Positions 7,203 through 60,041 of a stretch of 64,000 bases of DNA are shown here, in pieces. The notes beneath the pieces are model-generated. The model was given only the letters and a program-made list of their open reading frames with translations, was not told the DNA's origin and made no database searches. Made by a program: the position numbers and the translations under genes. The DNA lies in the NCBI GenBank assembly GCA_963800355.1, contig CAWDAP010000002.1, positions 2,608-66,607 on the forward strand, written 5' to 3'. Each line of letters begins with the position of its first letter. Positions within the stretch are counted from its first letter, which is position 1. Source of the DNA: an uncultured Actinomycetes bacterium (GTDB lineage Bacteria; Actinomycetota; Thermoleophilia; Solirubrobacterales; 70-9).

Positions 7203-8722
7203 CACATCCGGTAGACGGGGGCGGACCGGTCCTCCAGCGGGGCGCAGGCGCAGGCGGCCAGGGCTTCGCTGAGAACCCGGCGGGTGTCGCGGGGGTCGAT
7301 CACGCCGTCGTCCCAGAGGCGGGCGCTGGAGTAGAAGGGCTTGCCCTGCTCTTCGTATTGGTCGTGGAGGAGCTCGGCGGTCTCCGGCTGGCCCACCTCT
7401 CTCATCACCGCCGCCGCCATCTCGCCGCCCATCACCGAGATCCGGGCGTTCGGCCACATGAAGAGGAAGCGTGGCGAATAGGCGCGGCCGCACATGCCGT
7501 AGTTGCCGGCCCCGAAGGAGCCGCCGAGGATCACGGTCAGCTTCGGCACCCGGGCGGTGGAGACGGCGGCGACCATCTTCGCGCCGTCCTTGGCGATCCC
7601 GCCCTGCTCGTACTTGGAGCCGACCATGAAGCCGTTGACGTTCTGGAGGAAGACGAGTGGGATGCGGCGCTGGTCGCAGAGCTCGACGAAGTGGGCGCCC
7701 TTGAGCGCGCTCTCGGAGAAGAGGATGCCGTTGTTGGCGACGATCCCGACCGGGTGGCCGTCGAGGTGGGCGAAGGCGCAGACCAGCGTTTTGCCGTAGC
7801 GCTCCTTGAACTCGCGCAGCTCGCCGCCGTCGACGATCCGACGCATCACCTCGCGGATGTCCCAGGGCGCGCGCGAGCCGATCGGGACGACGTCGAGGAT
7901 CTCCTCCGCCTCGCCCGCCGGCGGCCGCGGCTCGAGCCGCTCCCAGGGCGGCGCCGGGCTCGGCGGCAGGGTGGCGACGATTTCGCGCAGGATCGCCAAC
8001 GCGTCGGCGTCGTCCTTGGCCAGATGGTCGGCGACGCCGGACTTGCGGGCGTGGACGTCGCCGCCGCCGAGCTCCTCCGCGCTCACCTCCTCCCCGGTCG
8101 CCGCCTTCACCAGCGGCGGGCCGCCGAGGAAGATCGTCCCCTGGTGGCGGACGATCACGGTCTCGTCGCTCATCGCCGGCACGTAGGCCCCGCCCGCGGT
8201 GCACGATCCCATCACCGCGGCGATCTGCGGGATCTCCCGCGCCGACATCGTCGCCTGGTTGAAGAAGATGCGGCCGAAGTGCTCGCGGTCGGGGAAGACC
8301 TCGTCCTGCAGGGGTAGGAAGGCGCCGCCGCTGTCGACCAGGTAGATGCATGGGAGCTGGTTCTGCAGGGCCACCTCCTGGGCGCGCAGGTGCTTCTTCA
8401 CCGTGATCGGGTAGTAGGTGCCGCCTTTGACGGTGGCGTCGTTGGCGGCGATCACGCAGCGGCGGCCGCTGACAGTGGCGACCCCGGCGACAATCCCCGC
8501 TCCCGGCGCCGCGTCGTCGTACATCCCGTGCGCGGCCAGCGGCGAGAGCTCGAGGAACGGCGTGCCGGGGTCGCAGAGTCCCGCGATCCGCTCGCGCGCG
8601 GTCAGCTTGCCGCGGCCGCGGTGGCGCTCGACCGCCTTCGGCCCGCCGCCGGCGCGGACCCGCTCCAGCTCGGACTCGAGCTCGGCGATCAGCTCCAGGT
8701 GCTTCTCGCGTCCCCCGCTCAT
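7202..8722 (-). CDS. methylcrotonoyl-CoA carboxylase beta (carboxyltransferase) subunit-like
   Basis: Acyl-CoA carboxyltransferase signatures ([20 protein letters not shown]; [24 protein letters not shown]; [17 protein letters not shown]). An HMG-CoA lyase gene lies next to it. Confidence 0.8.
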
Positions 8723-11624: not shown

Positions 11625-12302
11625 TTAGAAGCCCCCGGACGAGACGTGCTTCTCCCACGTGTGGGGAGGGCAAAGGGCGATGATGTCGGCGTTCTTCACA
11701 TAGGCGATACCGACGATGTCATGTTCGATCACCGGCCTATTCCGCTTTTTCGGCACGGGCAGGTAGAAGACGAGGTCGCCGTAATGGTAGTGCGGGTGAA
11801 ACGTCCCTCCGGGCGCCACCCGGCTTGCGTGCCAATGAGTAGCGAAGGTCAGGACACCCCGCTGATGAGGCAGGTAGTCAAAAGACCCTTCGGGATTGGC
11901 GGGGATCGCCCAGACCCTGCGACCTTCGTAGGTGGTGTGAATCGGGCGATCAGACATTGAGAAGTCCTGGGGTGGCGACCACCGGTCACGATCGAACGCG
12001 GTCACGACCAACCAGATCCTGTCCTGGTTGATATCCAACCAGTGCCGCGTGTCCCGGTTGTGGATTTCCATCTGGATCTTGACCTCGTACTGCTTTCGTA
12101 CGGCAGGGTCGATGCACCATTTTTTGACGTGGATCCATAGGTGGAGGTCATACGGATTGCTCCCGGAAGGGCAGTGATAGACCGAGTCGGTGGCTACTCG
12201 ATCAGAAGCTCCATTGCCGGCGAACGCGCCACTGGCGACGGCAACCGCTGCGAAGACGGCAGCGGCGAGAGTCACGATAAAGATCTTGAAATGGGTCTTC
12301 AA
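11625..12302 (-). CDS. secreted hypothetical protein (His/Trp-rich)
   Basis: Signal peptide (MKTHFKIFIVTLAAAVFAAVAVASGAFA). Codon usage is clearly lower in GC than the neighbours. No recognisable family. Confidence 0.55.
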   Translation of the reverse strand: MKTHFKIFIVTLAAAVFAAVAVASGAFAGNGASDRVATDSVYHCPSGSNPYDLHLWIHVKKWCIDPAVRKQYEVKIQMEIHNRDTRHWLDINQDRIWLVVTAFDRDRWSPPQDFSMSDRPIHTTYEGRRVWAIPANPEGSFDYLPHQRGVLTFATHWHASRVAPGGTFHPHYHYGDLVFYLPVPKKRNRPVIEHDIVGIAYVKNADIIALCPPHTWEKHVSSGGF

Positions 12303-12314
12303 GGGAGTCTTTGC

Positions 12315-13433
12315 TCAGGTACCGGGACGGTACCGGGAAACGTACCCGCTTGAGCGCTTCGATGAACTGGCGACTGCTCCGTGGCTCAGAGGCTCGAATC
12401 CAGCGGGCCACGTGGTCCGCCGGTCGAATTCGGCTCCGGCGAGGTTTGCGCCATCCAGGTCTGCCCGCCTAAGATCCGCCCCTCGGAGGTCCGCCTCGCG
12501 CAGGTTCGCCCCGCTGAGATCGGCGGATTCGAGAACCGCACCCCGGAGCTTCGCATCGAACAGTTCTGCGCCTTCGAGATGAGCCGCGAACAGTTCAGCA
12601 TGTTCGAGACGCGCTCCTTCGAAGTGCGCCTTCCGCAGGCGAGCTTCGGGCGCCTGGGCCGACCTCATGTCCGCTTCATAGAAGTAAGCGTGGGGCAGCT
12701 TCGCCCGTGCCAGATAAGCGTTGCGAAGCCGGGCGTAGGCGAATTCGGCGCCCGGCATCGTCACTTCTGCCATTTTCACCCAGTTCGCCTTGGCATGGTT
12801 GAAGCGCACATGCGCGCCTTCGGCTTCTTCGAAACGGGCTTTCCGGAGGCGTACACCTTCGAAGTTCGCTTCTTCCAGCTGGGTCTTCTGGAGTTCCGCT
12901 CCCTGCAACAAGGACCGCGGTAGTGCCGCCTTCTGCAGTTCCGCTTCGATCAGGTTCGCTTCCCGCATGTCCTTGCCCCGCAGGTACATGCGGCGCAGAT
13001 TTTCCCCTTCGAGGCCGATTCCTCGTAGATTGTGCTGCAGGGCCAAAGTGAGCTGGAGATTCTGCTGCTGCCGCTTTTCCGTTTCGCGTCGCGCTTCCTT
13101 TCGGATGTGCGCTTCTTCTCTATGGGTCTGCTCTTCGTTGGATCGATTGATCGACTGCTGGGCCTCAATCTGCGCCCAGCTAACGGCAATGGCGACAAGC
13201 ACGCCGACAAAGAGCGACTGTCCCACCTCGCGAGTCCAGTCCTCCCACCCCAGGTAATCCAGCCAGATCAGCCCCAGACCGACGACAAGCAGAAAGAAAA
13301 GGAGGCCTTGGAGAAGTGCGGCAATAGTGGCGAGATGGGCGACAAGCCGGGCAAACAGAAACGCGATGGCGAATGCCGTTGCCGCAGTGACGCCGATCTT
13401 CGCTGTCTCCCTCTCCACCAAGGCAGCGTACAT
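12315..13433 (-). CDS. membrane-anchored pentapeptide-repeat protein
   Basis: 3-4 N-terminal TM segments, a charged linker, then about 45 consecutive A(D/N)LxX-type pentapeptides (..ADLSGANLREADLRGADLRRADLDGANLAGAEF). Confidence 0.75.
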   Translation of the reverse strand: MYAALVERETAKIGVTAATAFAIAFLFARLVAHLATIAALLQGLLFFLLVVGLGLIWLDYLGWEDWTREVGQSLFVGVLVAIAVSWAQIEAQQSINRSNEEQTHREEAHIRKEARRETEKRQQQNLQLTLALQHNLRGIGLEGENLRRMYLRGKDMREANLIEAELQKAALPRSLLQGAELQKTQLEEANFEGVRLRKARFEEAEGAHVRFNHAKANWVKMAEVTMPGAEFAYARLRNAYLARAKLPHAYFYEADMRSAQAPEARLRKAHFEGARLEHAELFAAHLEGAELFDAKLRGAVLESADLSGANLREADLRGADLRRADLDGANLAGAEFDRRTTWPAGFEPLSHGAVASSSKRSSGYVSRYRPGT

Positions 13434-13567
13434 AGCTAGCCAGACTTGAATCTAGAAGGTGTGGGGCGAAGCGAGTAGGGCGACTACGACAGCGATCGCG
13501 AATACGAGGAACGCGGTCTTGAAAGGAGCGGGTGGAGCGGGGCGGATCATGCTCCGAAGTTAGTGAG

Positions 13568-13959
13568 TTATCTGCGATCCACCTGTGCAAAAGAGCACAG
13601 TCGGACATCGCTCACGTTGAGCAGGCTTTTCACCCGGGGATCGCGAAGCGTCGCCAGCTCGACCTGGCGCTCGGCGTCGTAGGAGGAGGTCGGGACGGGG
13701 CCGCCGGCGGGGTGGCAGCCGATCTCGGTCCAGCCCGGGGGCAGCGCCCGGATCAGGGCCAGCAGGTGCTCGACCGAGATCGCCTCCGGGGCCGGGGAAC
13801 CCTGCTCGTCCCGGCCGAAGAAGGAACCCTCGTAGGGGATCGCCCGGTTGCGCAGCGGCACCCCGAGCTCGGCGGCGGCGCCGCGAACACGCCCTCGTTG
13901 ACCGCCGCAGCGAGGCCGAGGTCATCGGCGTTGACGATCAGGGACCGGGTGTCGCTCAT
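13568..13959 (-). pseudogene. decayed ChbG/YdjC-family deacetylase gene (frameshift plus internal deletion)
   Basis: The N-terminal motif MSDTRSLIVNADDLGLAAAVNEGV is in one frame (from 13959). The C-terminal part (..LPPGWTEIGCHPAG...DAERQVELATLRDPRVK) is in another frame (13568-13861). The total span is only about 130 codons, where I expect the family to be roughly twice that. Confidence 0.55.
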
Positions 13960-14004
13960 CGAGTTCGTGATTTTCCTTGCTCTACAAGGAAAATCACGAA
14001 CTCG
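13960..14004. repeat. 20-bp perfect stem / 5-nt loop palindromic hairpin
   Basis: CGAGTTCGTGATTTTCCTTG-CTCTA-CAAGGAAAATCACGAACTCG, lying between the ChbG remnant and the ACAD stop. Confidence 0.7.
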
Positions 14005-28779: not shown

Positions 28780-29628
28780 TCAGCCGCGGGTGCCGCCGCC
28801 GCTGCCGTCCGGCGACCAGCCGGGGCCGCGGAAGAGGTAGCCGAGGCGGTGGCGCCAGCTGCTCGCGGCGCGCACGTCCCGCCAGATCGCGGCGAACTCG
28901 TGGAAGGCGACGCGGGTCGGGCGGAAGCTGCGGATGTTCTGGGTCAGGCCGTAGCGGGGGCGCTCGGTCTCGCCCTGGAAGCTGCCGAAGAGCCGGTCCC
29001 AGACGATCAGGATGCCGCCGTAGTTGCGGTCGAGGTAGACCTCGTTGGAGCCGTGGTGGACGCGGTGGTGCGAGGGGGTATTGAAGAAGAACTCGAACCA
29101 GGCGGGCATCCTCTTCACCCGCTCGGTGTGGATCCAGAACTGGTAGATGAGGCTGATCGCCTGCTGGGTGAGGATCATCCACGGGGCGAAGCCGACCAGC
29201 GCCAGCGGCGCCCAGAACGGCAGCGCCGTCATCGGCGTCCAGGTCTGCCGCAGCGCCGTCGAGAGGTTGTAGTGCTCGGAGGAGTGGTGGACGACGTGGC
29301 TCGCCCAGAAGACGCGGACCTCGTGGTGGATGCGGTGGAACCAGTAGTAAGCGAGATCGTCGGCGAAGAAGAGGAGCACGTAGGTCCACCACTTATCTGC
29401 CGGCATCCGCAGCGGGCTGAGCTCGTAGAGACCGGTGTAGATCGCGATCGCCACCAGCTTCCAGACCGCGTTGATGGCGACGTTGCCGGCGCCCATCGTC
29501 AGGCTGGTGCGGGTGTCGCGCACCTCGTAGCCGACCAGCTCCTCGTCGCGCGCGTACTTGAAGGAGAGCAGCTCGACGACCAGCAGCAGCACGAAGGCGG
29601 GGATCGCGTAGAGGATCAGCTCGGCCAC
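28780..29628 (-). CDS. fatty-acid hydroxylase / sterol-desaturase family membrane protein
   Basis: Histidine boxes HRIHHE, HVVHHSSEH and HHRVHH, plus 4 TM segments. Confidence 0.8.
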   Translation of the reverse strand: MAELILYAIPAFVLLLVVELLSFKYARDEELVGYEVRDTRTSLTMGAGNVAINAVWKLVAIAIYTGLYELSPLRMPADKWWTYVLLFFADDLAYYWFHRIHHEVRVFWASHVVHHSSEHYNLSTALRQTWTPMTALPFWAPLALVGFAPWMILTQQAISLIYQFWIHTERVKRMPAWFEFFFNTPSHHRVHHGSNEVYLDRNYGGILIVWDRLFGSFQGETERPRYGLTQNIRSFRPTRVAFHEFAAIWRDVRAASSWRHRLGYLFRGPGWSPDGSGGGTRG

Positions 29629-29770
29629 GGATCGACAACTGTAGCCGCATCCGGTTTCGCCCCTGAACCCCAGCTTTTTGCTTAGACTTTACTGATTATT
29701 TAAACAAAGACGGCGGAGAGCTTCCTGACCGGTCCTCTCCGCCGCGCGACAACCAGAAGGAGCACCAAAT

Positions 29771-30418
29771 ATGACTTGGCATCTCAAGGCTCTCGGCCTC
29801 GCGACGCTGGCTACCATGGCATTCGGCAGCCTGATCGCCTCGGCTGCGCAAGCTGAACGCTTTACAGCGGCCACGTACCCGGCGGTCCTCACCGGGAAAC
29901 AGAGCACCGCCCACGTCTACACCTTCAGCGGCGGGCCCAAAATCGAATGCAAAACCGTCAACAACAGCGGCGTTCTCGGGGGCGCGGCGGAAAGCATCAG
30001 CGTGACGGTGGCCGAGGAAAACTGCTCGCAGACCATCGGCGGCGTCTCGTATTCGTCAAACACAACACTGAAATGCGAAGGGACCTATACCCACCTGGAG
30101 CTCCTTGGGGCGACATTTGCGCAGTGCACCAGCCTGGGCGGCTACACACACGACGTTGAGACGAAAAACGCCCTCAACGAAACCACATGCGCCTACAGCC
30201 TCGAAGACCTCGGGACCACGGAAACCGTGTCACACGAAAACCTCGGCGGGACCAGCGGGGTCAAGTTCACCTACAACCTGACCGGTATCCCGTACAAACT
30301 GGTCACGGGGTCGACGCTGCTCTGCGGTTCGGCGAGCGGGACGGCAACCTACACCGGCACCTCTGTGTACACGGCGAAGACCGAAGGAGGCGAACCCATC
30401 TCGTTCGATATCGGCTGA
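29771..30418 (+). CDS. secreted Thr/Gly/Cys-rich hypothetical protein
   Basis: Signal peptide (..SLIASAAQA|ER), 6 Cys, and lower GC than the flanks. It is preceded by an AT-rich promoter-like stretch and followed by a hairpin. Confidence 0.55.
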   Translation: MTWHLKALGLATLATMAFGSLIASAAQAERFTAATYPAVLTGKQSTAHVYTFSGGPKIECKTVNNSGVLGGAAESISVTVAEENCSQTIGGVSYSSNTTLKCEGTYTHLELLGATFAQCTSLGGYTHDVETKNALNETTCAYSLEDLGTTETVSHENLGGTSGVKFTYNLTGIPYKLVTGSTLLCGSASGTATYTGTSVYTAKTEGGEPISFDIG

Positions 30419-46470: not shown

Positions 46471-47529
46471 ATGTCGTCGCTCCCTCGCCGTTTGCGCATG
46501 CTGTGGAGAACGGGTGAGCAGGCTGCCTCCGACGCCGATCAGACGCTCTCGGAAACCGATCAGACCAGCTCCGATTCCGATCAGAGCCTCTCCGATCGCG
46601 ACCAAGCGGCGGCGCAGGCCGACCAGCAGGTCTCGGATCGGGAACAGGCCTTGGCCGATCGCCAGTTCGATGCCACCGACGCCTCGGTGCAGCCCAGCAG
46701 GTTGCCCGAGTATGAAAGGGCACACGCCGAGCGCGACGAAGGGACGATGTCGCGAGCGGCGACCGCTGCCGTTCGCTCGATGATCTCGTCCGAACGCGAT
46801 GCCCAGGCCGAGCAGCGCGACAATCAGGCACGCGACCGGGACCTGATCGCCGAGGAGCGCGACCAGGTCGCCGACCTCGCCGACCAGGAGGCAGCCGCCC
46901 TTGCCCGCGAGATCGGCAAGGCCGACACGTCCACCAAGCTGGCGCTGGAGGCTGCCGCCTCCGCACGCAGCCTCGCCGCAAGCGCCCGCAGCAAAGCGGC
47001 GCGCGACCGCGAACGGGCGGCGGGCGACCGCGAAGCGGCGGCGCGCGACCGCGAGTTCCTCCGCGACGAGATGGAGCGCTCCCAGATGGACGAGCTGACC
47101 GGCGCCTACAGGAGGGGCATGGGAGAAATCCTCCTCCGCCATGAGTTGGCACGAGCCAAACGCCTGGGCGCGTCGCTGACCCTCGCCTTCGTCGATGCCG
47201 ACCGGCTGAAGGAGACCAACACCCGGTCGGGCCACGCAGCCGGCGACGTCCTGCTTCGCCAGGTCTGCAGCGGTCTTCAAGCAAGGCTCCGTCCCTACGA
47301 TCCGATCGTCCGCTGGGGCGGCGACGAGTTCGTCTGCACCATCTCCGGCGTCATCCCCGCGGAGGCCCGGATTCGCATCGAACAGGCGGAGGTGGACCTC
47401 CGAGCCCTCGATCCTCCGGTCTCCATCACCTTCGGCGTGGCAGCGATGGAGCCCGGCGACAACCTCGCCGCTCTCGTGGGCCGCGCGGACGCCGCCCAAC
47501 GCGAGGCGAAGGGCAAGAAGCGAGGCTAG
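46471..47529 (+). CDS. diguanylate cyclase (GGDEF) with N-terminal acidic heptad-repeat coiled coil
   Basis: The C-terminal GGDEF domain (DELTGAYRRG...FVDADRLKETN...RWGGDEF) has an intact RxxD I-site (RPYD) 5 residues upstream of the GGDEF motif. Confidence 0.8.
   Translation: MSSLPRRLRMLWRTGEQAASDADQTLSETDQTSSDSDQSLSDRDQAAAQADQQVSDREQALADRQFDATDASVQPSRLPEYERAHAERDEGTMSRAATAAVRSMISSERDAQAEQRDNQARDRDLIAEERDQVADLADQEAAALAREIGKADTSTKLALEAAASARSLAASARSKAARDRERAAGDREAAARDREFLRDEMERSQMDELTGAYRRGMGEILLRHELARAKRLGASLTLAFVDADRLKETNTRSGHAAGDVLLRQVCSGLQARLRPYDPIVRWGGDEFVCTISGVIPAEARIRIEQAEVDLRALDPPVSITFGVAAMEPGDNLAALVGRADAAQREAKGKKRG
46531..46677 (+). repeat. seven tandem 21-nt units encoding (D/E/Q)x(D/E)Qxxx heptads
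   Basis: DADQTLS ETDQTSS DSDQSLS DRDQAAA QADQQVS DREQALA DRQFDAT, read in frame of the GGDEF gene. Confidence 0.8.
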
Positions 47530-47695: not shown

Positions 47696-48085
47696 CTAGG
47701 ACGGCGTCGCCGACCAGGGCGGACGGAGCCCTTCCAGCATCGGGAAGTGCTTCACATTCAGCGTCGCGAACTCGGCGCCCTCCTCCTCCGCCGTGGCCGC
47801 AATCAGGTAGTCGGCGAGGTCGATCCCGGGATGAGAGCGTCGGAAGCGGCGCAGGTGGCGACCTGCCCGCCGGGCGATCGCATCGGTGACCGGGAGCAGG
47901 CGCAACCCGTCGAACAGGCGACTGACGTCACGGCGTTCGCCCGAGCGCATCCCACCCTCGATCTCAGCGCGCGAGATCACGCTCGCGAGCGCTCCCTCCG
48001 CGGAGGCGTCAAGCAGCAGGTCCGTCGCGCGTCCGTCGCCGCGTAGGTGCGCAATCAGGATCGTCGAGTCGAACAGAGTGCTCAA
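47696..48085 (-). CDS. vapC: type II toxin VapC (PIN domain)
   Basis: STLFDSTILIAHLRG... with the conserved acidic residues. The TTG start overlaps the vapB stop (TTGA). Confidence 0.75.
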   Translation of the reverse strand: MSTLFDSTILIAHLRGDGRATDLLLDASAEGALASVISRAEIEGGMRSGERRDVSRLFDGLRLLPVTDAIARRAGRHLRRFRRSHPGIDLADYLIAATAEEEGAEFATLNVKHFPMLEGLRPPWSATPS

Positions 48086-48342
48086 TGCTCGAGGCTTTTG
48101 AGCCGCTCGTCCGCCCCGCCGCCACGCACCTGCGACAACCAAGACTTCCAGTCCTCGGCGTCGGGAAGGACGCCCGCGGTGGCACGAATCGCCCGCCGCC
48201 GTTCCTCTGCCCCGTCGTCGACCCCCAGGCCCTCATCGAGCATGCGCCGGATCACCTGCGCCTTCGACATCCCGGCATCAGCGGCGCGTGACGCGATTCG
48301 CCGCTCCTGCTCCTCGGTGATGTAGATTTGGGTGCGCAGCAT
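48082..48342 (-). CDS. vapB: ribbon-helix-helix antitoxin (VapB/CopG-like)
   Basis: MLRTQIYITEEQERRIASRAADAGMSKAQVIRRMLDEGL. AT-rich palindromes (GTATAC, CATATG) lie just upstream. Confidence 0.7.
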   Translation of the reverse strand: MLRTQIYITEEQERRIASRAADAGMSKAQVIRRMLDEGLGVDDGAEERRRAIRATAGVLPDAEDWKSWLSQVRGGGADERLKSLEH

Positions 48343-48696
48343 ATACAGCAACAGTATACATCATATGAGATCCTCGGGGCACTTTCGCTGAGCTTTCGGT
48401 GAGAAGTGCATCGTTTCGCGCGGCATTTTCAACCCGGCGCAGCCACGACACGAAGGGCGAAGTGATCGGCCCTCTCGCTACCTTCCCATCCTTGTCCAAT
48501 GCTCGTGCACCAACCGAACCGCCTCCTCCTCGCTCAGCCCTTCAGCTCTTCCGCAAGAACATCGTCATTCGATATGAGTTGATCAGCCACGCTCGGCCCT
48601 CGAAAGCTCCGACAACAAGCTTGTAATTGGCCATTCAAGCCACTCCTTCGCCTTGCCGATCATGGCGATCGGCCGGAAGCTTTTGTCGGAGCGCAG

Positions 48697-48741
48697 AGGG
48701 GTGGCAGACGGGATTCGAACCCGCGACCGCCGGCACCACAA
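48697..48741 (-). repeat. 45-bp duplicate of the 3' part of tRNA-His (att-like direct repeat, distal copy)
   Basis: AGGGGTGGCAGACGGGATTCGAACCCGCGACCGCCGGCACCACAA is identical to 54462-54506. The upstream tRNA half is absent here. Confidence 0.85.
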
Positions 48742-48876
48742 TTAAGCGGCTTCGGGCGGAGCCCTTCCCAGATTCCGCATTATCAGCGGCTGCGGGCGGA
48801 ATCCGAGCCGCAAGCACAGAGCTAATAGACGTTGAGCCGTGGATTGACGACCGCTGATTTAGCTAATAACTGAGGC

Positions 48877-49572
48877 ATGGCTGAACTCTCCAACCGCGAC
48901 GAAGAGATACTGGCGATTCTCGTTGAGCTATCTGAAGACACCCCAGACAGGGGCTTCGAGATATCGCCAGGCGCAGACAGCCTTGGATCACCGCCCTGGC
49001 CAGAAGACAAAAGAGGTCCAACGCGAGATGAGATCCGAAATCTAGTCAATCGCGACTTCCTCGAAATCGACAAGGATGCTCAGCCAATCTGGCGCTTCTG
49101 GCCTTCGGCGCAAGCGCGTGAGCGCTTTGCTGGTGCGGCTGAGCAGACCCTGGCCGAGGCATTAACGGACCCCGACCAGCGACTCGCCGTGATCCTGAAG
49201 GCTGTCGTCGATGCTTTCGAGCAGGACCCGGTCACCCCGCTACTACTTTTACGCACCAATTCCGTCGACATCGTCCGGCACCCCACATGGGGCATCCCCC
49301 CCGAGGTTGTCCGGCTACATGATCTGCGACAGCTCGAAGAACTAGGGCTGATTGGTTGGGAGGACGAGACCCGGTTCTATCCGACTCCATGGGGCCGAAT
49401 GGCCGTACGCAATCCTGTCGCGCTTCTCAGCCAGCGAGCCGATCAGGCCGAGGACGAGGAGGAGCGCTCGAGGCTTCGGCGATGGGTGGAGAAGATCCGC
49501 GCAGGAGATGTCGCGGTTGGGACCGCAAGTGGCTTGACCGGCGCTGTGATCCGCGCGTTATTGGGGTTCTAG
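48877..49572 (+). CDS. hypothetical protein with two winged-helix-like segments
   Basis: The N-terminus is EEILAILVEL...TRDEIRNLVNRDFLEID. The C-terminus is LHDLRQLEELGLIGWEDETRFYPTPWGRMAV. It lies 37 nt upstream of the PIN-like gene. Confidence 0.5.
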   Translation: MAELSNRDEEILAILVELSEDTPDRGFEISPGADSLGSPPWPEDKRGPTRDEIRNLVNRDFLEIDKDAQPIWRFWPSAQARERFAGAAEQTLAEALTDPDQRLAVILKAVVDAFEQDPVTPLLLLRTNSVDIVRHPTWGIPPEVVRLHDLRQLEELGLIGWEDETRFYPTPWGRMAVRNPVALLSQRADQAEDEEERSRLRRWVEKIRAGDVAVGTASGLTGAVIRALLGF

Positions 49573-49609
49573 CTATGTCGTCGAACCGCAAGGGGCGCGG
49601 CTGATAGCC

Positions 49610-50662
49610 GTGGCCATCTATCTCGACGCGAATCTGCTGTGGTCCTGGCTGCGTTTTACGGAGCCGGAGCGACTTGCTGTCAGCATCGTCGCCAATCAGC
49701 TTGGCCAAGAGGTCTTGGTTCCATCTGTCGCAGTGGCCGAGGCCGAAGAGGATCTTCGCCGGCGCATCCAAGAGGAGCTCAGCAAGCTTGACAGCGCGAA
49801 AGCGGGCCTCGAACGGATCATGCATGAGAATCTCGAGATCTTCCCCGAGCCGATGCCTGTCATAGACGAGCAGCTCGAAGTCTGGAGAGAGAGGTTGGAG
49901 GAGTTCGCGACGATTCTTCCGCTCACCGACGAGGATGCCCAGCTCGCCCTCAGGCGCGAGATAGAAGGACGCCGCCCCGCCCGACCACGCGAAAAGGGGA
50001 AGCACGGGGCTGGCGGCCGCGACGCCGCTGTATGGCTGACCCTCCTGCGCGACCATCGCGAGCGCGGCGAGCCGGGACACCTCCTCTCCGGCGACAAGAA
50101 GGCATTTTCCGATGGCAAGGACACGCTGCACCCCGATCTCGTTCGCGAGGTAGAGCTTGAAGGGGGCGAAGAAATTACCTATTACAACGACGCAGCCAAG
50201 CTGATCGAACAAGTTGGCGAACAAGGTCCCCATCGAGACCTGGATCTTCCCTCGCTTCAGAGCCTCGCCTTCAACTCGATCCAATCGGGCCTGCGACATT
50301 CACCCTTGCCTCCACGCGCTCTCTGGATCGAGCAAGACCCGGAGCTTCGGTACAGCACCGAGATAAGCAAAGCCGAGTTACTCGAGGTCGTGAGTCAACA
50401 CCGCTATGTACGCGACGACCGAGCAGTCCTCGCCGTGAATAGCCGCTGGCGCCTGGAAGTAGATTCGTTTTGGCAGCGGCGTGATACGGAAATGCCAGGC
50501 ACCTGGTCCGGGGTTGGAGGCAACATGATCGATGCCGAACTCCAGCTGCTCATAGAGGAAGACTTAGGAGAGCTGCGTGCGACCGAGCTGATTGGCGCGG
50601 AGCTCACCAGCTCTGCCAGCCTCTCGATGATGAGCGATGGCAGCATCATCTCGATTGGGTGA
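49610..50662 (+). CDS. PIN-like nuclease domain protein (DUF4935/PIN_12-type) with unknown about 150-aa C-terminal domain
   Basis: Acidic residues sit in PIN order: IYLDANLL, VAEAEED, GGRDAAVWLTLL, LSGDKKAF. A helical insert separates them. Confidence 0.5.
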   Translation: MAIYLDANLLWSWLRFTEPERLAVSIVANQLGQEVLVPSVAVAEAEEDLRRRIQEELSKLDSAKAGLERIMHENLEIFPEPMPVIDEQLEVWRERLEEFATILPLTDEDAQLALRREIEGRRPARPREKGKHGAGGRDAAVWLTLLRDHRERGEPGHLLSGDKKAFSDGKDTLHPDLVREVELEGGEEITYYNDAAKLIEQVGEQGPHRDLDLPSLQSLAFNSIQSGLRHSPLPPRALWIEQDPELRYSTEISKAELLEVVSQHRYVRDDRAVLAVNSRWRLEVDSFWQRRDTEMPGTWSGVGGNMIDAELQLLIEEDLGELRATELIGAELTSSASLSMMSDGSIISIG

Positions 50663-50690
50663 TTGAACGCTTCAAGCGTCAGCTTTTCAT

Positions 50691-51302
50691 TTACGAGCGC
50701 GATGCTCCGGAGTCACCCGTGAATGACTCGGGACCCATGTCGCTGAAAGTGACCGCTTCGACGAGCTTCTCAAGCCGCTCTTGCACCCACAGAGGGGGCG
50801 GCTCAACACCAGGCAGTTCATCGACCAGCTCCATCCCCCTCTTCCAGACCTTGTCGGCGAGACCACTCGCCGACTGAGTGAATTCGATCAGCTCGATCAC
50901 ATGTGGCGCCATAGCCACCACGCCTCCATCGCCGAGTGCCGGCATGGCTTGGATCAGGAACCGGTGCGCGAGGCGGTTCCGGGGGCCTTCGAGAAACTTG
51001 TCCAGCTCCACCCTGGTTTCCTCATCCAGCTGATCGCCGACTCCCTGCTTTGCGTCGTTCAGCTTCATAGGCGCGGTGCCTTTGTTAAGCGATTCCCACA
51101 GCCTGGCTAGCCCTTTGCGTAGCTGCCTTCGGGCGCTGCCCGAACTCTTCGATGGGTCGTAGTTTCCAATTAGGTAGAGAAAGGAAACCGAGAACTCGAG
51201 CCGCTGGACTGCGATCATCGTCGCCCCATAGAGCGCTGCCAGCCATAGCCGGGTCTGCTCCAGGCCAATCTCTTCACGTTCGCCTCTTGGCGCTTCTGCC
51301 AT
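50691..51302 (-). CDS. hypothetical helical protein with HEPN-type Rx4H motif
   Basis: GPRNRLAHRFL (R-N-x-x-A-H, as in Abi-type HEPN RNases) in an all-helical 203-aa protein. Confidence 0.45.
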   Translation of the reverse strand: MAEAPRGEREEIGLEQTRLWLAALYGATMIAVQRLEFSVSFLYLIGNYDPSKSSGSARRQLRKGLARLWESLNKGTAPMKLNDAKQGVGDQLDEETRVELDKFLEGPRNRLAHRFLIQAMPALGDGGVVAMAPHVIELIEFTQSASGLADKVWKRGMELVDELPGVEPPPLWVQERLEKLVEAVTFSDMGPESFTGDSGASRS

Positions 51303-51581
51303 TGCCGCAGTATCTCCTCTCGCCTACCGGCGCGCGATCCTCCGGCGACCCAACAAGCATCCCCGCACAGAGGGCAAGCGACTGCTTCCTCGTCTTGCTG
51401 AATTCGTCACTCGACTCCTTCTCGCGACGCCGACGCATGAGACCAGTTCGTCCCGCTTCCGCCGAGCGGTTCTCGTGAGGGTTCGCAATGCTTAGCACCG
51501 ATGGGAAAGCGTCGCGACAAGGAGTCAAAGCAGCAGGCGCCACTAAGCGGTGGTGAGATTGCCGCGCTCAACAGGGCCTTT

Positions 51582-52966
51582 GGTCACGTCGGTAGAAGTG
51601 GTGTAACCGCCACGTTGGGGCCGGAACGAAGTTCCGGCCACCGCGGGCCCCAGACTCGTCGGTTGACCAGCAAGTCGACTGACGAAAGGAAGCACCACGA
51701 TGGCCGAGAGCCAAAGCATGACGAGCGCCGGGGTCGTAGCCAAGGCGCTGATCGAGGAGCACTCCGATTTCCTCCGGGAGTCGGTGACGATGATCGCCGC
51801 CGAGATCATGGAGGCCGAGATCGAGCGCCAGATCGGCGCCGGCAAAGGCGAGGTGAGCGAGGCCAGGGCCACCCACCGCAACGGCTACCGGCAAAGGCCC
51901 TGGGCGACCAGGGTCGGCGAGATCGAGCTGGCGGTTCCCAGAAAGCGCTCGGGCGAGAGCTACTTCCCGAGCTTCCTGGAGCCCCGCAAAAGAAGCGAGA
52001 AGGCGCTGCTCGGCGTGGTCATGGAGGCCTACGTCAACGGGGTCTCGACCCGCAAGGTCGACCACCTGGTCTCCGAGCTCGGCATCCATATGAGCAAGGA
52101 CCAGGTCTCCCGGATCTGCGGCGAGCTCGACGGTCAGGTCGAGGCCTTCCGCACCCGGCCCCTGGAGGGCGCCTACCCCTATCTCTGGCTCGACGCCAAG
52201 CACCTCAGGGTCAGAGACCGTGGCCACGTCCATTCCAAGGCGCTGATGGTCGCCTTCGCGGTGCACGAGTCCGGCAGGAGAGAGGTGATCGGCATCGAGA
52301 TCGCCGAGTCGGAGACCGAGGCCGGTTGGGCGGCGTTCCTGCGCGAGCTGGTGGCCCGCGGCCTGGAGGGGGTCAGGCTTGCCGTCTCCGACGATCACTT
52401 GGGCCTCAAGGCCGCGATCGCCAAGGTGATCGGCTGCCCCTGGCAGCGCTGCACCGTCCACTTCATAAGGAACATGCACGGCCACTGCAAGAAGGGCCAG
52501 CGCAACATGGTCTCCGCTGCCCTGCGCGAGGTCTTCAACGCCGAGGGCCTCGCCGATGCCCGGGAGCGCTCGGCGTCGGTCATCGAGCGCCTCTCACCGG
52601 TCGCGCCGAAGGTGGCAGCGCTGCTCACCGAGGCCGAGGACGACCTCCTCGCCTTCTACCGCTTCCCCTCTGCCCACTGGCCGAAGCTGCGCTCGACCAA
52701 CAACATCGAGCGCGTCAACAAGGAGATCGCCCGGCGCTCTGACGTCGTCGGCATCTTCCCCAACGACCGCTCGGTGATCCGCTTGATCGGGTCGCTGCTG
52801 ATCGAGCAAAACGACGAGTGGCTGCTTACCCGCGGCTACCTCTCCCAGGAGTCGATCGGTCTGGTCCTCGAGGACCAGACCGATGAAGCCGGAAGCGAGG
52901 TGGCTGCGCTGGAGCGATGAGAGAAGTGCCGGCGAGTCCCGTTACACCACAACTCGCGACTTGACT
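51582..52966 (+). mobile_element. IS256-family insertion sequence (1385 bp) with 8-bp target-site duplication
   Basis: Imperfect terminal IRs (GGTCACGTCGGTAGAAGTGGTGTAAC / reverse complement AGTCAAGTCGCGAGTTGTGGTGTAAC). The direct repeat GGGCCTTT is at 51574-51581 and 52967-52974. Confidence 0.85.
51700..52920 (+). CDS. IS256-family (Mutator-type) transposase
   Basis: 406 aa with family-typical blocks (RNGYR.R...T..G.I.L.VP..R.G.YFPS.LE; YLWLDA; DDH.GLK.AI; RCTVHF.RN; STN.IER.N.EI.RR). Confidence 0.9.
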   Translation: MAESQSMTSAGVVAKALIEEHSDFLRESVTMIAAEIMEAEIERQIGAGKGEVSEARATHRNGYRQRPWATRVGEIELAVPRKRSGESYFPSFLEPRKRSEKALLGVVMEAYVNGVSTRKVDHLVSELGIHMSKDQVSRICGELDGQVEAFRTRPLEGAYPYLWLDAKHLRVRDRGHVHSKALMVAFAVHESGRREVIGIEIAESETEAGWAAFLRELVARGLEGVRLAVSDDHLGLKAAIAKVIGCPWQRCTVHFIRNMHGHCKKGQRNMVSAALREVFNAEGLADARERSASVIERLSPVAPKVAALLTEAEDDLLAFYRFPSAHWPKLRSTNNIERVNKEIARRSDVVGIFPNDRSVIRLIGSLLIEQNDEWLLTRGYLSQESIGLVLEDQTDEAGSEVAALER

Positions 52967-53993
52967 GGGCCTTTTACGGAACCGATCCGGCGGAGCATTT
53001 CAGCCGCCGTTTTCATCTGCTTCTGGCGCAGGCGAGCCAAAGCGATGCAGAGCTTCGAGCCGAAGATAAGGAGTACAAGTTCGGAAAGATCTCTATGACC
53101 GTCCCATCGGTCACCGAGGGTGAGGTCGATGAAGACGCCCATAAGCGTTTCGTGCTTTTGGAGGCGGAGCTATTTATCCATCATGCAGCCGAGACGTTGA
53201 TGCGCCTCTATTTCGCTCACTCGTGCAACGCCCCGGCGCCCTGGATCGAGATGGCGAAACTTCGAGGACCGGGTGAGTTCACGCGAAGGCTGAAGGCCTT
53301 CCGCAAGGAGCGGCAGAAGGAGAGCGTGCTGACTCAGATACGACTTGTCTTCTTTGGTTACAAACAATTCCCGCAGGAGTGGAGTGAAGAGAAGGCCGCC
53401 GAGAACGAAGCGGCTCTTGTGAGAGTCGCCGACTACCTCGACTATTTCTCAGAAGTGCTCCTTCAGCGCGGGCAGACCTATAACGCCGTAAAGCACGGGC
53501 TGGCCGTCGAAGCGGGGGAGTCTGCGATTGCGGTCCGCGAGATCGAAGAGCTGTCGGCCAGCGGGCCCTCGATCGCGTACCTCGACCGCGCGCGCGATGA
53601 GGAAAAGAAAAGCTTTTGGGCTGTGAAGACCCGCTGGATCCCGCTTGAGTTTGACATCACCCTGGCCTACGTTGGCACCCAACTCCTCAATGCACTCTGG
53701 ACGGTGGCGCGCATCCGCTACGTGAAATGGCCCATCCCGAAAGATGGTCAGCGCCTGTCGATCCCGACGGTTTCCTTAGGAGATGTCAGAAAGGCGGCAG
53801 CAATGCCGACCATCCAAATTGACGAGGTCGCGTTTCCAGCGGAGATGCATTGCCCCCCCGGTGCCGGGGCTGACTCCAAAATTGCAAGCCTCAACGAGGA
53901 AGCCAAGAAGGACACGGACGGCTAAACCCGAGCATCCATTCGGGGTGACCACGGCTCGGCCTTACTGCTGGGTCACCCCGTCGAGGAGGAGCT

Positions 53994-54290
53994 TCACGCC
54001 AAGGCGGCCTGGTCGCGCCTCCAGGCTGCTTCGGCCTCATCGGCGTCTTCGGTGTTGAGGGCGATGTGTTGATCAATCTCGTCGGGGAAGGCGCCGTAGT
54101 AGCGGACCGCGGTCCGCACTTGAGAGTCGGTGAGGTTGAGAAGCTCGGCGGTGGCGGTGATCGCCTCCTCCCCACTCGTGTTGCCGCTCTTGAGCGTCGC
54201 CATGAGCTCCCAGATATCTGGGCCGCCGGTCAAGGCGGCGCGGCGGCCGGTGGGACCATCACGGAAGACAATGCCGCGGAACTCATCCAT
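53994..54290 (-). CDS. small DUF433-like protein
   Basis: GRRAALTGGPDIWELMATL..G.S.EEA....LNLTDSQVRTAVRYYGAFPDEID resembles the DUF433 pattern. Confidence 0.4.
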   Translation of the reverse strand: MDEFRGIVFRDGPTGRRAALTGGPDIWELMATLKSGNTSGEEAITATAELLNLTDSQVRTAVRYYGAFPDEIDQHIALNTEDADEAEAAWRRDQAALA

Positions 54291-54464
54291 TCGTTCACCG
54301 TAGCCAACGACGTTTTATGTCACGGAATCGGCGCCTATCGCCGCGCATTCCCGCCTATTCACCATCGATCAGGCAGAAACTGCCTGATCGGGAGCGAAAT
54401 TTGGGTCCGGTTTAAACCCATCCGGCCAACCCCGACATGCCGATTTGCGGGGGATTCGATTAGG

Positions 54465-54538
54465 GGTGGCAGACGGGATTCGAACCCGCGACCGCCGGCA
54501 CCACAAGCCGGAGCTCTACCAACTGAGCTACTGCCACC
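54465..54538 (-). tRNA. tRNA-His: tRNA-His (anticodon GTG)
   Basis: The cloverleaf can be read by eye. It has G-1, acceptor GTGGCAG/CTGCCAC and D arm GCTC-AGTTGGTA-GAGC. The anticodon arm is CCGGC-TTGTGGT-GCCGG and the T loop is TTCGAAT. The discriminator is C opposite G-1, a His hallmark. Confidence 0.9.
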
Positions 54539-54705: not shown

Positions 54706-55122
54706 TCAGAGTGCGCTCAGCAGCTCGACATCTCTGCCGCCGGCGAGTGTGCTGATGCCGCCGTCGAAGGTGACGAGCCGCATCCCGGATCGGCGGGCGA
54801 GAGTGAGCAGATGCGCGTCGGTCACCTGCCGATATCCGGCGACCTCGGGCACGTCGGGGTCGACGATCGAGAAGTCGTCGGCGAGGAAGCGGTGGCCGTC
54901 GAGGGCGCGGAGCGAGGTGAGGACGCCGCGGGCGGCGCCGATCCCGATCGCGCTCGGCAGCGCCTTGGGGTTGGAGGAGACGCGGACAAAGCCGCTCTCG
55001 GTGACTGGGCAGGTCGCCCATCCGCTCGATGACTCGGCGGCGAACCATTCGCGCATCGCGGCGTGGTGGACGTGAGAGTCCCAGGCCAGGGCGACCAGAG
55101 CGTTGACGTCGAGCAGGGCCAC
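54706..55122 (-). CDS. vapC: type II toxin VapC (PIN domain)
   Basis: MALLDVNALVAL...TESGFVRV....QVTDAHLLTLA...LVTFD. Confidence 0.85.
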   Translation of the reverse strand: MALLDVNALVALAWDSHVHHAAMREWFAAESSSGWATCPVTESGFVRVSSNPKALPSAIGIGAARGVLTSLRALDGHRFLADDFSIVDPDVPEVAGYRQVTDAHLLTLARRSGMRLVTFDGGISTLAGGRDVELLSAL

Positions 55123-55131
55123 TACGGGCCG

Positions 55132-55353
55132 TCAGTCTTCTTCGAGCCCGCGGCGAACCATCTCCGGGGTGATCGGCGGCGTTCCCTCGGGGACGCGGAT
55201 CACCGGCAGGCCGCCGGCGACCTCGACCCGGGCCGGGGTCAGTCCCCGGCGGGCGAGCTCGGAGATCACCGCGCCCAGGGAGCGATGCTCCTCAGAGGCA
55301 AGCTCGCGGGCGGCAGCCGCCACATCGTCGTCGATGTTCAGCGTGGTTCGCAC
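55132..55353 (-). CDS. vapB: type II antitoxin VapB
   Basis: MRTTLNIDDDV...A.ELA......SLG.VISELARRGL. It sits 9 nt upstream of vapC. Confidence 0.8.
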   Translation of the reverse strand: MRTTLNIDDDVAAAARELASEEHRSLGAVISELARRGLTPARVEVAGGLPVIRVPEGTPPITPEMVRRGLEED

Positions 55354-57999: not shown

Positions 58000-58653
58000 T
58001 CAGTGATCCGCATCGGGGGGCAACTCGAAGAGGAACATCGCGAGGATCGCGGGGATACCTTCTCCCGAGCCATTCATTCGTTCAGCAGCGGCGCTCTGCT
58101 CCTTCAGTGCCTGATCGAGCGCCTTGGCCTGGATAGCGTGCACCGCCCGCCAGCCCTGCTCGTCTAGACAAAGGGGGACGCGGGTAGCCTGCCGATCCGC
58201 GCGTTTGTCGAAATAGCCCGTCTCCAGCGATCTGGCAGCATCGCTCAGCACGTTGTCGATGAGGTGAGCGGAGAAAGCACCGCGGACCTTGGGGTCGAGC
58301 TTCAGCCAGTCGTCGTTGCTGACCATAGGGCGCTCGAGGGCCTTGTAGAAATGCTGGACTGCTCCCCTAACGTTTTCTTCTTCAATGATCTCGACTAGAC
58401 CCAGCTCGTTGAGTACCCGCACGTGATAGCTGACGTTGCTCAACGGAGTCTCGATCGCATCGGCGATTTCTTTCGGGCTAGCGGTCCTTTCGGTGAGGAT
58501 CTTCAGTGCCTTCACCCGAACCGGATGGTTCAGTGCCTTCACCAGAACCTCCTGGGGCGATTTAGCAGCCCTCCCCCTCTTCCGACTTTGCTTCCTAACC
58601 CGCCGCTTTCGCGATGGCATCCCGTCGCCTCCCTTTCCATTTCCCTGAGCCAT
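58000..58653 (-). CDS. ArsR-like winged-helix protein with about 110-aa C-terminal domain (paralog 1 of 3)
   Basis: LNHPVRVKALKILTERTASPKEIADAIETPLSNVSYHVRVLNELGLVEIIEE..VRGAVQHFY. Confidence 0.65.
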   Translation of the reverse strand: MAQGNGKGGDGMPSRKRRVRKQSRKRGRAAKSPQEVLVKALNHPVRVKALKILTERTASPKEIADAIETPLSNVSYHVRVLNELGLVEIIEEENVRGAVQHFYKALERPMVSNDDWLKLDPKVRGAFSAHLIDNVLSDAARSLETGYFDKRADRQATRVPLCLDEQGWRAVHAIQAKALDQALKEQSAAAERMNGSGEGIPAILAMFLFELPPDADH

Positions 58654-58815
58654 TACTCATCAGGATAAATGGCAAATGACTTGACATTAACTAGTCAGCA
58701 CATACTGCTCGCATCGCGTCTATGGACTGGTCAGGCCTGTGGGCTCATGGACGCACGGGAGACTGTTGGCCACCCCGAGGACCCAGGCGTCCAGTACCTC
58801 GTGTGAACCCACTCC

Positions 58816-59412
58816 TCAGCCACGGCTTGAGCCGTGCGGCGCTTCGAATCCGAGCGCGGAGAAGGTGTAATTCCGTCGCCTCGACCGAGGACTCCGATTG
58901 ACCGACTCCGCCTCAAGAGCGTCAAGTCGCTCGTGCGCGGCTCGTAAGAGACGTACCGCCTTTTGCCAGGCCTCGGCATCAAGGCTCAGTTTGTAGTTTG
59001 CAATAACCCGGTCGACGCGTCGATCAAAAGTGCCCGCTTCTAAGGCCTGCTGCGCGCGAGTAATGGTTTCGCCTACGGCTTTTCGACTGATGCCAACGCG
59101 GGTCGGATAACTCAGGCGCTCCCAATCTCCGTAGTCAAGCAGGACCTTGGTAACGCCCCGGTAAATTCTGGCCGGTATACCTCGGACTGATTTTTCTTCT
59201 ACGAGCTCAATGCAGCCGAGTTCCCGGAGGACTTTGAAGTGGTAGCTGACTACATTGCGAGGTTCGCCGGACTCGCGGGCGAGCTGAGCCGCGCAGGCCT
59301 TTTGCTCATTTAGCCTGGCCAGACACCAAGCACGCAACGGGTGGCCTAGCGCTATCTCAAGCCGGCCGGTCGGACTGGGAATTGCCGCGTCGGCGGCCTT
59401 CGGTTTCTTCAT
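58816..59412 (-). CDS. ArsR-like winged-helix protein (paralog 2 of 3)
   Basis: LGHPLRAWCLARLNE...LARESGEPRNVVSYHFKVLRELGCIELVEE.SVRG..ARIYR...DYGDWERLS. The ATG overlaps the stop of paralog 3 (ATGA). Confidence 0.65.
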   Translation of the reverse strand: MKKPKAADAAIPSPTGRLEIALGHPLRAWCLARLNEQKACAAQLARESGEPRNVVSYHFKVLRELGCIELVEEKSVRGIPARIYRGVTKVLLDYGDWERLSYPTRVGISRKAVGETITRAQQALEAGTFDRRVDRVIANYKLSLDAEAWQKAVRLLRAAHERLDALEAESVNRSPRSRRRNYTFSALGFEAPHGSSRG

Positions 59413-60041
59413 CGCTCGAGCTGAACGGGGGGCCGAGGTTGGGCAGTGGCGGAAGAGGGCGATTCGTAGCCCATAACGGTAATCGTGAAGCGACTCCGCA
59501 GGGCAGGATCTGGCGTCCGTTCAAGCGATTCGGGCTCAAGCTCTTCCAGCCGACGATGAAGCTCGCGGAGAATCTCCACTCCCTCGCGCCAGCCCTCCTC
59601 ATCAAGGCTCGGTTTGTAGTTGGCAGCAATCCGGTCGCTGCGCCGATCGAAGGTTTCGGCTTCAAACGCCTCTTCAACGAGCTCGAGAGTTTCGCCGAGC
59701 GCTTTGACGCTGATTCCAGATCGCGTCTGGAAGCTCAATCTTTCCCAGTCCCCATAGTCCAAAACGACCTTCACCGCAGCCCTATAGATTTTCTCGAACA
59801 CCCCGCGGACGCGTCTTTCCTCGACCAACTCGATACACCCCAGTTCCGCGAGGACCCTGAGGTGGTAGTTCACCTTGTTCCGTGGTTCGCCCGACAGGTG
59901 TGAGAGCTTGGCCCCGGAGGTCTCGCCCTCGTTGAGCTTTGCGAGGCACCAAGCACGCAAGGGGTGACCGAGGGCCACGTCCAGGCCGCCGCTGCGATGT
60001 CGACCGGGTGACTCTCCGGGGTCGTTTTTTCCTCTGGGCAT
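59409..60041 (-). CDS. ArsR-like winged-helix protein (paralog 3 of 3)
   Basis: LGHPLRAWCLAKLNE...LSHLSGEPRNKVNYHLRVLAELGCIELVEE.RVRG...KIYR...DYGDWERLS. I chose ATG 60041 by analogy with its paralogs; the ORF extends to 60200. Confidence 0.6.
   Translation of the reverse strand: MPRGKNDPGESPGRHRSGGLDVALGHPLRAWCLAKLNEGETSGAKLSHLSGEPRNKVNYHLRVLAELGCIELVEERRVRGVFEKIYRAAVKVVLDYGDWERLSFQTRSGISVKALGETLELVEEAFEAETFDRRSDRIAANYKPSLDEEGWREGVEILRELHRRLEELEPESLERTPDPALRSRFTITVMGYESPSSATAQPRPPVQLER

Follow-up and report, generated by a model that had tools for sequence, protein, structure and literature searches.

Proteins of the DUF4935 family are approximately 350 amino acids in length and consist of an N-terminal PIN domain followed by a poorly conserved alpha/beta region of unknown fold (PMC5499597). 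Their genes have been described as "usually mono-cistrons", and no member of the family has a demonstrated nuclease activity (PMC5499597). A second group of relevance is the HEPN superfamily, to which DUF3644 has been assigned (PMC3710099). It includes HEC-08, a single-gene protein of the DUF3644 type, whose activity in phage defence depends on the histidine of its motif (bioRxiv 10.1101/2024.01.29.577857). The locus described here contains a member of the first group and a candidate for the second. It lies within a 64,000-nucleotide (nt) stretch of contig CAWDAP010000002.1 (assembly GCA_963800355.1) from an uncultured bacterium of the Solirubrobacterales, hereafter the window, and comprises three adjacent genes: A, encoding a tandem winged-helix-like protein; B, encoding a PIN_12/DUF4935 protein; and C, encoding an all-helical protein with an RNxLAH motif. 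The favoured reading, with a probability of roughly 0.6, is that this segment is a mosaic island at a tRNA-His gene, in which an A-B two-gene cassette sits beside an independent C gene, and not one system. This reading is preferred because A, B and C do not travel together elsewhere. The genes of the island would thus be cassettes that are also found singly in other integrative elements and in defence-type islands of Solirubrobacterales-like soil bacteria.

The evidence comes from a co-occurrence set of 189 loci (the window and 188 fetched loci; 1.94 Mb; 18,486 stop-to-stop open reading frames (ORFs)), which was searched with hidden Markov models of the A, B and C families. A relative of B is present in 160 of these loci, which derive from GTDB genomes (80), metagenomes (76) and viral contigs (4), and the C-terminal domain of B is present in 21. 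Extra loci were obtained from look-ups of individual proteins. Outside the window, no member of the C family lies within 6-8 kb of a B relative; the family occurs only in the window and in the loci fetched with C itself. The A family lies next to a B relative at one locus outside the window (L171), and otherwise appears only in loci fetched with A. Counting the window, an A homologue stands upstream of a full-length-type B in two of the 21 loci, and A is followed by B in two of approximately seven A contexts. An A-B-C arrangement as a conserved unit was also sought with tblastn and with profiles of A, C and the two remaining island ORFs, D and E, against all of the B-relative loci. It was rejected, as only L171 was positive. 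A preliminary description of this DNA, made from its sequence alone, had put the three genes forward as a candidate toxin-antitoxin or abortive infection system and had looked to co-occurrence of the three families across genomes. That proposal is not supported: in these loci, co-occurrence is absent for C and nearly absent for A.

The A-B segment of L171 shares 80% DNA identity with the window over 1.8 kb, and represents the same cassette in two related islands. In L171 the B gene is frameshifted into ORFs of 197 and 170 amino acids, and is followed by HNH, EcoRV and methylase genes. The cassette again lies inside a larger segment, of approximately 5.8 kb, bounded by 42-nt repeats (positions 2219-2260 and 8005-8046 of that locus) that resemble a tRNA 3′ fragment with a CAT anticodon loop. 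A flank of approximately 100 nt is also repeated (2263-2366 and 8062-8165), with a third partial copy at 990-1071. The repeats suggest a tandem accretion of islands.

The remaining B homologues are found in a variety of settings, many of them adjoining integrase or Replic_Relax genes. At L083-86 and L088, the gene for a 340-amino acid protein is situated upstream, with its stop overlapping the B start. At L087 (5798-6001, corresponding to 4979-6001 of L083), this partner has been cut to a 67-amino acid in-frame remnant made up of its first ~21 and last ~52 residues. B is intact beside this remnant and is thus tolerated without that partner. A 372-amino acid protein is encoded 17 nt upstream of B in L001, a Replic_Relax gene lies upstream in L092, and the neighbours in L003 and L004 are divergent. 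No gene is present within approximately 400 nt upstream in L081, L089 and L002.

The homologues of A whose neighbourhoods were compared are 55-83% identical to A, and their surroundings are equally diverse. They precede a GNAT-like gene with a gap of 8-13 nt in L174 and L179-184, where confirmed GajA/GajB genes and a SIR2_2 protein are nearby. In other loci the A homologue follows a C5 methylase gene near Vsr and AAA_5 genes (L177), follows a UvrD helicase gene (L175), or lies near a Fic gene with no close same-strand gene downstream (L172). The A family is thus an unannotated, island-associated family that is present in many defence-type neighbourhoods. The neighbourhood homologues of C are 66-88% identical to it, and none has A or B nearby. 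One is located beside a frameshifted integrase gene and a tRNA-Leu gene (L164). Another follows AbiEi/AbiEii, a Type ISP restriction gene and the gene of a DUF4062 protein, the last of these 66 nt before C, and is next to a tRNA-Ala gene (L166). The third is positioned 72 nt downstream of the gene (L168, 941-5929) for a 1662-amino acid protein that matches the PADLOC candidate PDC-M54A along its whole length (1267 bits), and is next to a tRNA-Phe gene. It was also noted that the C homologue of L168 adjoins a His-Xaa-Ser-type radical SAM cluster (HxsD). A fixed island end for A or C was considered and rejected, the orientations relative to the tRNA varying between loci.

As long ORFs are expected by chance at a GC content of ~71%, the ratio of nonsynonymous to synonymous substitution rates (dN/dS) was computed against homologues from other assemblies. 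The values were 0.11-0.15 for A, 0.14-0.22 for B and 0.12-0.16 for C, and on this basis A, B and C are real genes under purifying selection. Their sizes and order are as first described: A and B are on the same strand with 37 nt between them, and B and C converge with 28 nt between their stop codons. The proteins of A, B, C, D and E were compared with the curated libraries Pfam, PADLOC (PADLOC-DB 2.0), NCBIfam and PHROGs. None of the five matched a PADLOC component at an expectation value (E) of up to 1, in agreement with the earlier statement that the locus corresponds to no named system, and no NCBIfam or PHROGs model was matched by A, B or C. A phage or plasmid origin was rejected, since A and C have no relatives among IMG/VR contigs and PLSDB plasmids, and B has only distant, PIN-only relatives there.

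The island measures 5.7 kb, from ~48.7 to 54.5 kb of the window, and is enclosed by perfect 45-nt direct repeats of the 3′ end of tRNA-His. The GC content between the repeats is 0.59-0.66, compared with 0.70-0.74 outside, a drop of approximately 10 points. No integrase was found among the island ORFs, either in the ORF list or with Pfam. The repeat and an intact tRNA-His gene, with no integrase, fit a decayed integrative element at the tRNA-His 3′ end. The mobile origin proposed beforehand is in keeping with the repeats and the low GC content, but the element has probably lost its mobility.

Protein B is a member of PIN_12/DUF4935, a known orphan family, and its acidic site is intact. The PIN_12 model (PF16289, formerly DUF4935) matches residues 3-166 over its entire length (1-172 of 172) with 39.4 bits, above the gathering score of 32, and is also matched by 34 of the 35 B-family members. 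Full-length homologues (36, with 37-73% identity, all of ~350 amino acids) were recovered from a collection of 5.8 billion proteins, and come only from Solirubrobacterales metagenome-assembled genomes (MAGs) and soil metagenomes. Across 35 of them, residues E44, E46 and D138 show no variation, and at least 90% conservation is seen for D6 and D162. The acidic motifs in PIN order (IYLDANLL, VAEAEED, GGRDAAVW and SGDKKAF), which had been read from the sequence as split by a helical insert in DUF4935/PIN_12 style, are accordingly confirmed by a profile match and by conservation of their columns. The C-terminal half (residues ~200-350) has invariant positions of its own, W239, R265, Y266, Q312 and S334, and has no match in Pfam or among PDB sequences, as had been anticipated for the last ~150 residues. 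More distant PIN_12 relatives, for example in Streptomyces, align only with residues 1 to ~205.

B would be a Mg2+/Mn2+-dependent PIN endonuclease and, by analogy with the VapC group, most likely an RNase. The C-terminal domain would probably gate or target its own nuclease. Such self-gating would explain why B homologues exist as single genes and why B survives without its neighbour in L087.

Protein A is plausibly a tandem winged-helix protein. Its AlphaFold2 model (predicted local distance difference test (pLDDT) 85, predicted template modelling score (pTM) 0.79) has one helix-strand-(loop)-helix-hairpin unit at residues 6-76 and another at 99-169; after these come helices at the C-terminus and a hydrophobic tail. 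The Foldseek list against the PDB consists mostly of winged-helix proteins, including RPC62, RosR (probability 0.97), a PaaX-like regulator, SarS, Rio2, IclR/HmgR and CodY. The two winged-helix-like segments that had been suggested are therefore plausible, but all of the fold matches are weak (best E 0.016) with low TM-scores. There are 50 homologues with 44-95% identity, and no significant match to A was obtained in the curated libraries, their helix-turn-helix families included. A sub-threshold match to DUF6381 is shared by 23 of 24 A-family members at residues 181-209, where the sequence DEEERSRLRRW makes up an acidic helix. Behind it, the final ~20 residues (AVGxAxGLTGAAIRALLG) are a hydrophobic helix that might contact a membrane or a partner protein; both helices fall within residues 181-231 (window ~49417-49569). 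The predicted role of A is to regulate whichever gene follows it by binding DNA, or to serve that gene as a sensor-type partner.

Protein C has 36 close homologues (66-88% identity), and a profile search with its family returned 110 clusters from 1.84 billion representative proteins. The sequence GPRNRLAHRFL is present in C, and in an alignment of 62 of these clusters at ~20% identity the motif is retained with the consensus WRNxLAHRYL, R108 being invariant and H113 conserved in more than 90%. In the same sequences a second motif, YGxTMxxVQxxE, has an invariant Q33 and E36. The AlphaFold2 model is all-helical (pLDDT 78, pTM 0.77), with the RNxLAH motif opening a long helix at residues 108-162. 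No match to C itself was obtained in Pfam, NCBIfam or PADLOC at E up to 1. Sub-threshold matches to the HEPN superfamily are found in 8 of the 62 relatives (DUF3644 in three, HEPN_RiboL-PSP in three and HepT-like in two; best E 0.0025); HEPN_RiboL-PSP and HepT-like are families of this superfamily. A Foldseek search with the C model against the PDB and viral models, a comparison that is difficult for all-helical folds, returned generic helical bundles; every E value was 0.1 or higher and none of the matches was a HEPN structure. PDB sequences were searched with profiles of both C alignments, the close one and the broad one, and a HEPN chain was found with neither. The helical fold and the RNxxAH motif of the preliminary description have thus stood, the latter down to ~20% identity, but neither a profile nor a fold match has placed C in the HEPN superfamily at significance.

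The invariant arginine and conserved histidine of RNxLAH suggest, without proving, that C is a HEPN-type RNase, and its membership of the superfamily, to which the motif and the weak family hints point, is unproven. As an independent single-gene cassette, C would probably act alone, possibly as a HEPN-like RNase. A separate match was noted for the close C-family profile: residues 133-184 (window ~50751-50906) reached an E of 4e-7 when the scores against the three CW_7 repeats in the cell-wall-binding module of Cpl-7 lysozyme (5i8l) were summed. This is composed of three stretches of ~12 bits each, a single repeat (4cvd) gives 13 bits, and the match is probably compositional.

Some of the evidence weighs against a mosaic of an A-B cassette and a separate C. 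The sampling of contexts is thin, with three independent contexts for C, ~6 for A and ~14 for full-length B. The short gap between A and B and the retention of the pair in L171 at 80% DNA identity could signify a specific partnership, including an antitoxin role for A. Furthermore, in four separate B contexts the neighbouring protein carries an R-x(4-6)-H motif, in two of these with weak HEPN-family matches, and a functional link of PIN_12 with HEPN proteins, C included, could follow from this. The last two points lead to alternatives that have to be considered in their own right.

The first alternative is that A and B form a classical type II toxin-antitoxin pair, with B as a VapC-like PIN toxin, A as its antitoxin and auto-repressor, and C unrelated to both. 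The order of the genes, with a DNA-binding-type gene closely upstream of a PIN gene on the same strand, fits such a pair, as does its preservation as a unit in L171. GNAT and PIN are common toxin folds, and A precedes a GNAT-like gene elsewhere with an even shorter gap. In addition, B is subject to decay: besides the frameshift in L171, only fragments of it are left in L013, L135 and L136, a pattern typical of toxin genes. Against this pairing, full-length B is without an A homologue in approximately 19 of the 21 loci and without a close upstream gene in at least three, while in L087 it remains intact with an upstream partner of only 67 amino acids. With 231 amino acids and two winged-helix-like units, A is also unlike the known VapB-type antitoxins. 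The occurrence of proteins ~70% identical to A beside unrelated enzymes, or beside no enzyme, makes a neutralising surface dedicated to one toxin less likely. For this reason A is more likely a regulator or a sensor-type accessory than a dedicated antitoxin, and the type II pair is unlikely.

The second alternative follows from the neighbours of the B homologues. A DUF4935-type PIN protein might work with a swappable HEPN-type partner, in which case B and the convergent C, with or without A, would be a functional unit here. The genes with the R-x(4-6)-H motif flank several B homologues. In L083, the 340-amino acid neighbour (RNRVSH) gives a weak HEPN_Swt1 match (E 6e-4) and a match to PDC-M34B of PADLOC (E 9e-7). 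In L001, the 372-amino acid neighbour (RDEEQH) weakly matches DUF3644 (E 1.6e-3), a HEPN family (PMC3710099), and a 377-amino acid neighbour in L003 has the motif RNAIVH. There is a precedent for such a combination, since eukaryotic Swt1 is a PIN domain fused to HEPN (PMC3710099). Against this, every Pfam match of these neighbours is under its curated threshold, R-x(4-6)-H is a common pattern, and HEPN genes are frequent in islands anyway. Homology of C to the neighbours in L083, L001 and L003 was considered and rejected, the hhalign probability against the C profile being below 2%. As several B homologues are without a neighbour of this kind and C homologues never accompany B elsewhere, the partnership is distinctly unlikely.

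A third alternative, judged improbable, is that A, B and C work for the mobile elements that carry them, for instance in their regulation or maintenance or in exclusion, and are neither toxins nor anti-phage defences. The proximity of B homologues to integrase and Replic_Relax genes and the position of C homologues at the tRNA/integrase end of islands are in keeping with such a service, as is the unusual conservation of A and C, whose identity reaches 83-88% between islands that occupy different tRNA sites. Nevertheless, A and C also occur where an integrase or tRNA gene is not nearby (L175, L177 and L179), and most of the genes around them are of restriction, Gabija, AbiE or SIR2 type. Lastly, a three-component toxin-antitoxin or abortive infection system, in which A is the DNA-binding partner of two RNase effectors, is very improbable: the tight packing of the genes and the presence of a PIN protein and a conserved R-x4-H motif on one mobile island speak for it, but C recurs in three unrelated contexts without A or B, A recurs with B in one other, closely related locus, and no PADLOC model is matched. 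The reading of the segment as a mosaic island, with an A-B cassette and an independent C, is accordingly retained. The features of the island are listed in Table 1.

Table 1. Features of the tRNA-His island, in coordinates of the window
Feature	Position	Strand	Basis
Direct repeat, distal; 45-nt copy of the tRNA-His 3′ end, attachment (att)-type	48697..48741	-	Perfect repeat of 54462-54506
Gene A, 231 amino acids; tandem winged-helix-like with C-terminal helical region	48877..49572	+	ORF, homologues, AlphaFold2, Foldseek
Gene B, 350 amino acids; PIN_12/DUF4935 predicted metal-dependent nuclease (residues ~1-190) with conserved C-terminal domain (~200-350)	49610..50662	+	Pfam PF16289; GTG start
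Gene C, 203 amino acids; all-helical, R108-x4-H113, HEPN-like by motif only	50691..51302	-	ORF, homologues, AlphaFold2
IS256/Mutator-family insertion sequence	51582..52966	+	Transposase 51700-52920, Transposase_mut E 4e-120
Gene D, 276 amino acids; island ORF with no family match	53095..53925	+	ORF
Gene E, 98 amino acids; island ORF with no family match	53994..54290	-	ORF
tRNA-His(gtg), integration target; its 3′ 45 nt are the proximal repeat copy, 54462-54506	54463..54537	-	ARAGORN

The IS256 element in the C-D intergenic region is flanked by an intact 8-bp target duplication, GGGCCTTT (51574-51581 and 52967-52974), and its ends carry inverted repeats of 25 nt that match imperfectly (51583-51607 and 52941-52965). 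The intact duplication marks a simple insertion, which looks recent. The element was considered as the reason for the loss of the integrase and was rejected, as the intact duplication shows that nothing was deleted. D and E are unmatched in Pfam, PADLOC, NCBIfam and PHROGs, and none of the 188 fetched loci contains a relative of either. A resemblance of E to DUF433-type small proteins was noted by eye; profiles give no support for it. A scan of positions 48300-51700 for promoters and terminators found nothing that exceeded shuffled expectation.

A number of features outside the island were recorded in passing. Ordinary VapBC-like pairs lie on both of its chromosomal flanks, at 47696-48351 and 54706-55353. 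Pfam matches to PIN and RHH support the left pair, and the right pair, consisting of a 138-amino acid PIN-like protein and a 73-amino acid protein, was judged by eye only. A 352-amino acid ORF (46471-47529) contains three 21-nt tandem repeat units (46975-47054) that encode an acidic and arginine-rich repeat, and its terminal motifs resemble the GGDEF type by eye. Other stretches of low GC content (0.59-0.63 compared with ~0.71) are found at 12001-14000, 29001-30000 and 58001-60000, and suggest further acquired segments in the window.

It can be proposed tentatively that A is a new kind of defence-island regulator or sensor placed before interchangeable effectors (DUF4935, GNAT), that A-B is a new PIN-based defence or abortive infection pair, and that C is a new single-gene HEPN-like defence RNase. 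This combination of claims is possible but doubtful as a whole. If it were true, A and C would found two undescribed and unusually conserved families that move on integrative elements of the Solirubrobacterales, and A-B would be the first setting in which a function could be attached to the orphan DUF4935 family. The interest of the locus lies in these families. DUF4935/PIN_12 is a sizeable orphan nuclease family, and A and C are strongly conserved, have no family model and are found near Gabija, AbiE, restriction-modification, SIR2 and PADLOC candidate genes. Should A-B or C protect against phage or act as a toxin, a first biological role for DUF4935 would be gained by way of the A-B cassette, along with two small additions to the defence catalogue from a poorly studied soil actinobacterial lineage. 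What remains of the system first proposed is a set of candidate single- and two-gene cassettes, a kind that is very numerous in defence islands.

In comparison with the VapBC type II modules, the locus has the same overall layout: the PIN-domain gene comes shortly after a DNA-binding-type gene, both in the same orientation. It differs in that B, with its additional domain, is more than twice the size of VapC, A is a predicted tandem winged-helix protein of 231 amino acids and not an antitoxin of the RHH, AbrB or Phd type, and the pairing of A with B is not conserved across either family. For A, the nearest comparison is the BrxR/CapW class of winged helix-WYL proteins, which are transcription regulators of defence islands. 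Like these, A is a conserved protein, of putative winged-helix type, that occurs beside unrelated defence-type genes (Gabija, restriction-modification, SIR2, PIN and GNAT). Unlike them, it lacks a WYL or WCX domain and matches no curated family by sequence, and it is sometimes the last gene of an operon and not the first (L175 and L177).

With the single-gene HEPN defence and abortive infection proteins (HEC-08 and the families of PMC3710099), C shares its small size, its helical make-up and a conserved R-x4-H motif that begins a long helix. Its gene likewise stands alone in neighbourhoods rich in restriction and abortive infection genes, and a few of its relatives weakly match HEPN families. 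It is set apart by the lack of a significant match to a HEPN model or structure, and by the YGxTMxxVQxxE motif, which could not be placed in the HEPN fold. The closest correspondence is that of B with DUF4935/PIN_12, a VapC-like group (Matelska et al. 2017, PMC5499597). B has the length of this family, approximately 350 amino acids, its N-terminal PIN domain with four to five conserved acidic residues, its helical insert and, like the family, a C-terminal region for which no homologue is known; the homologues of B are often monocistronic. Nothing sets B apart from the family, within which the subfamily that carries its C-terminal domain was recovered only from Solirubrobacterales-type MAGs and soil metagenomes.

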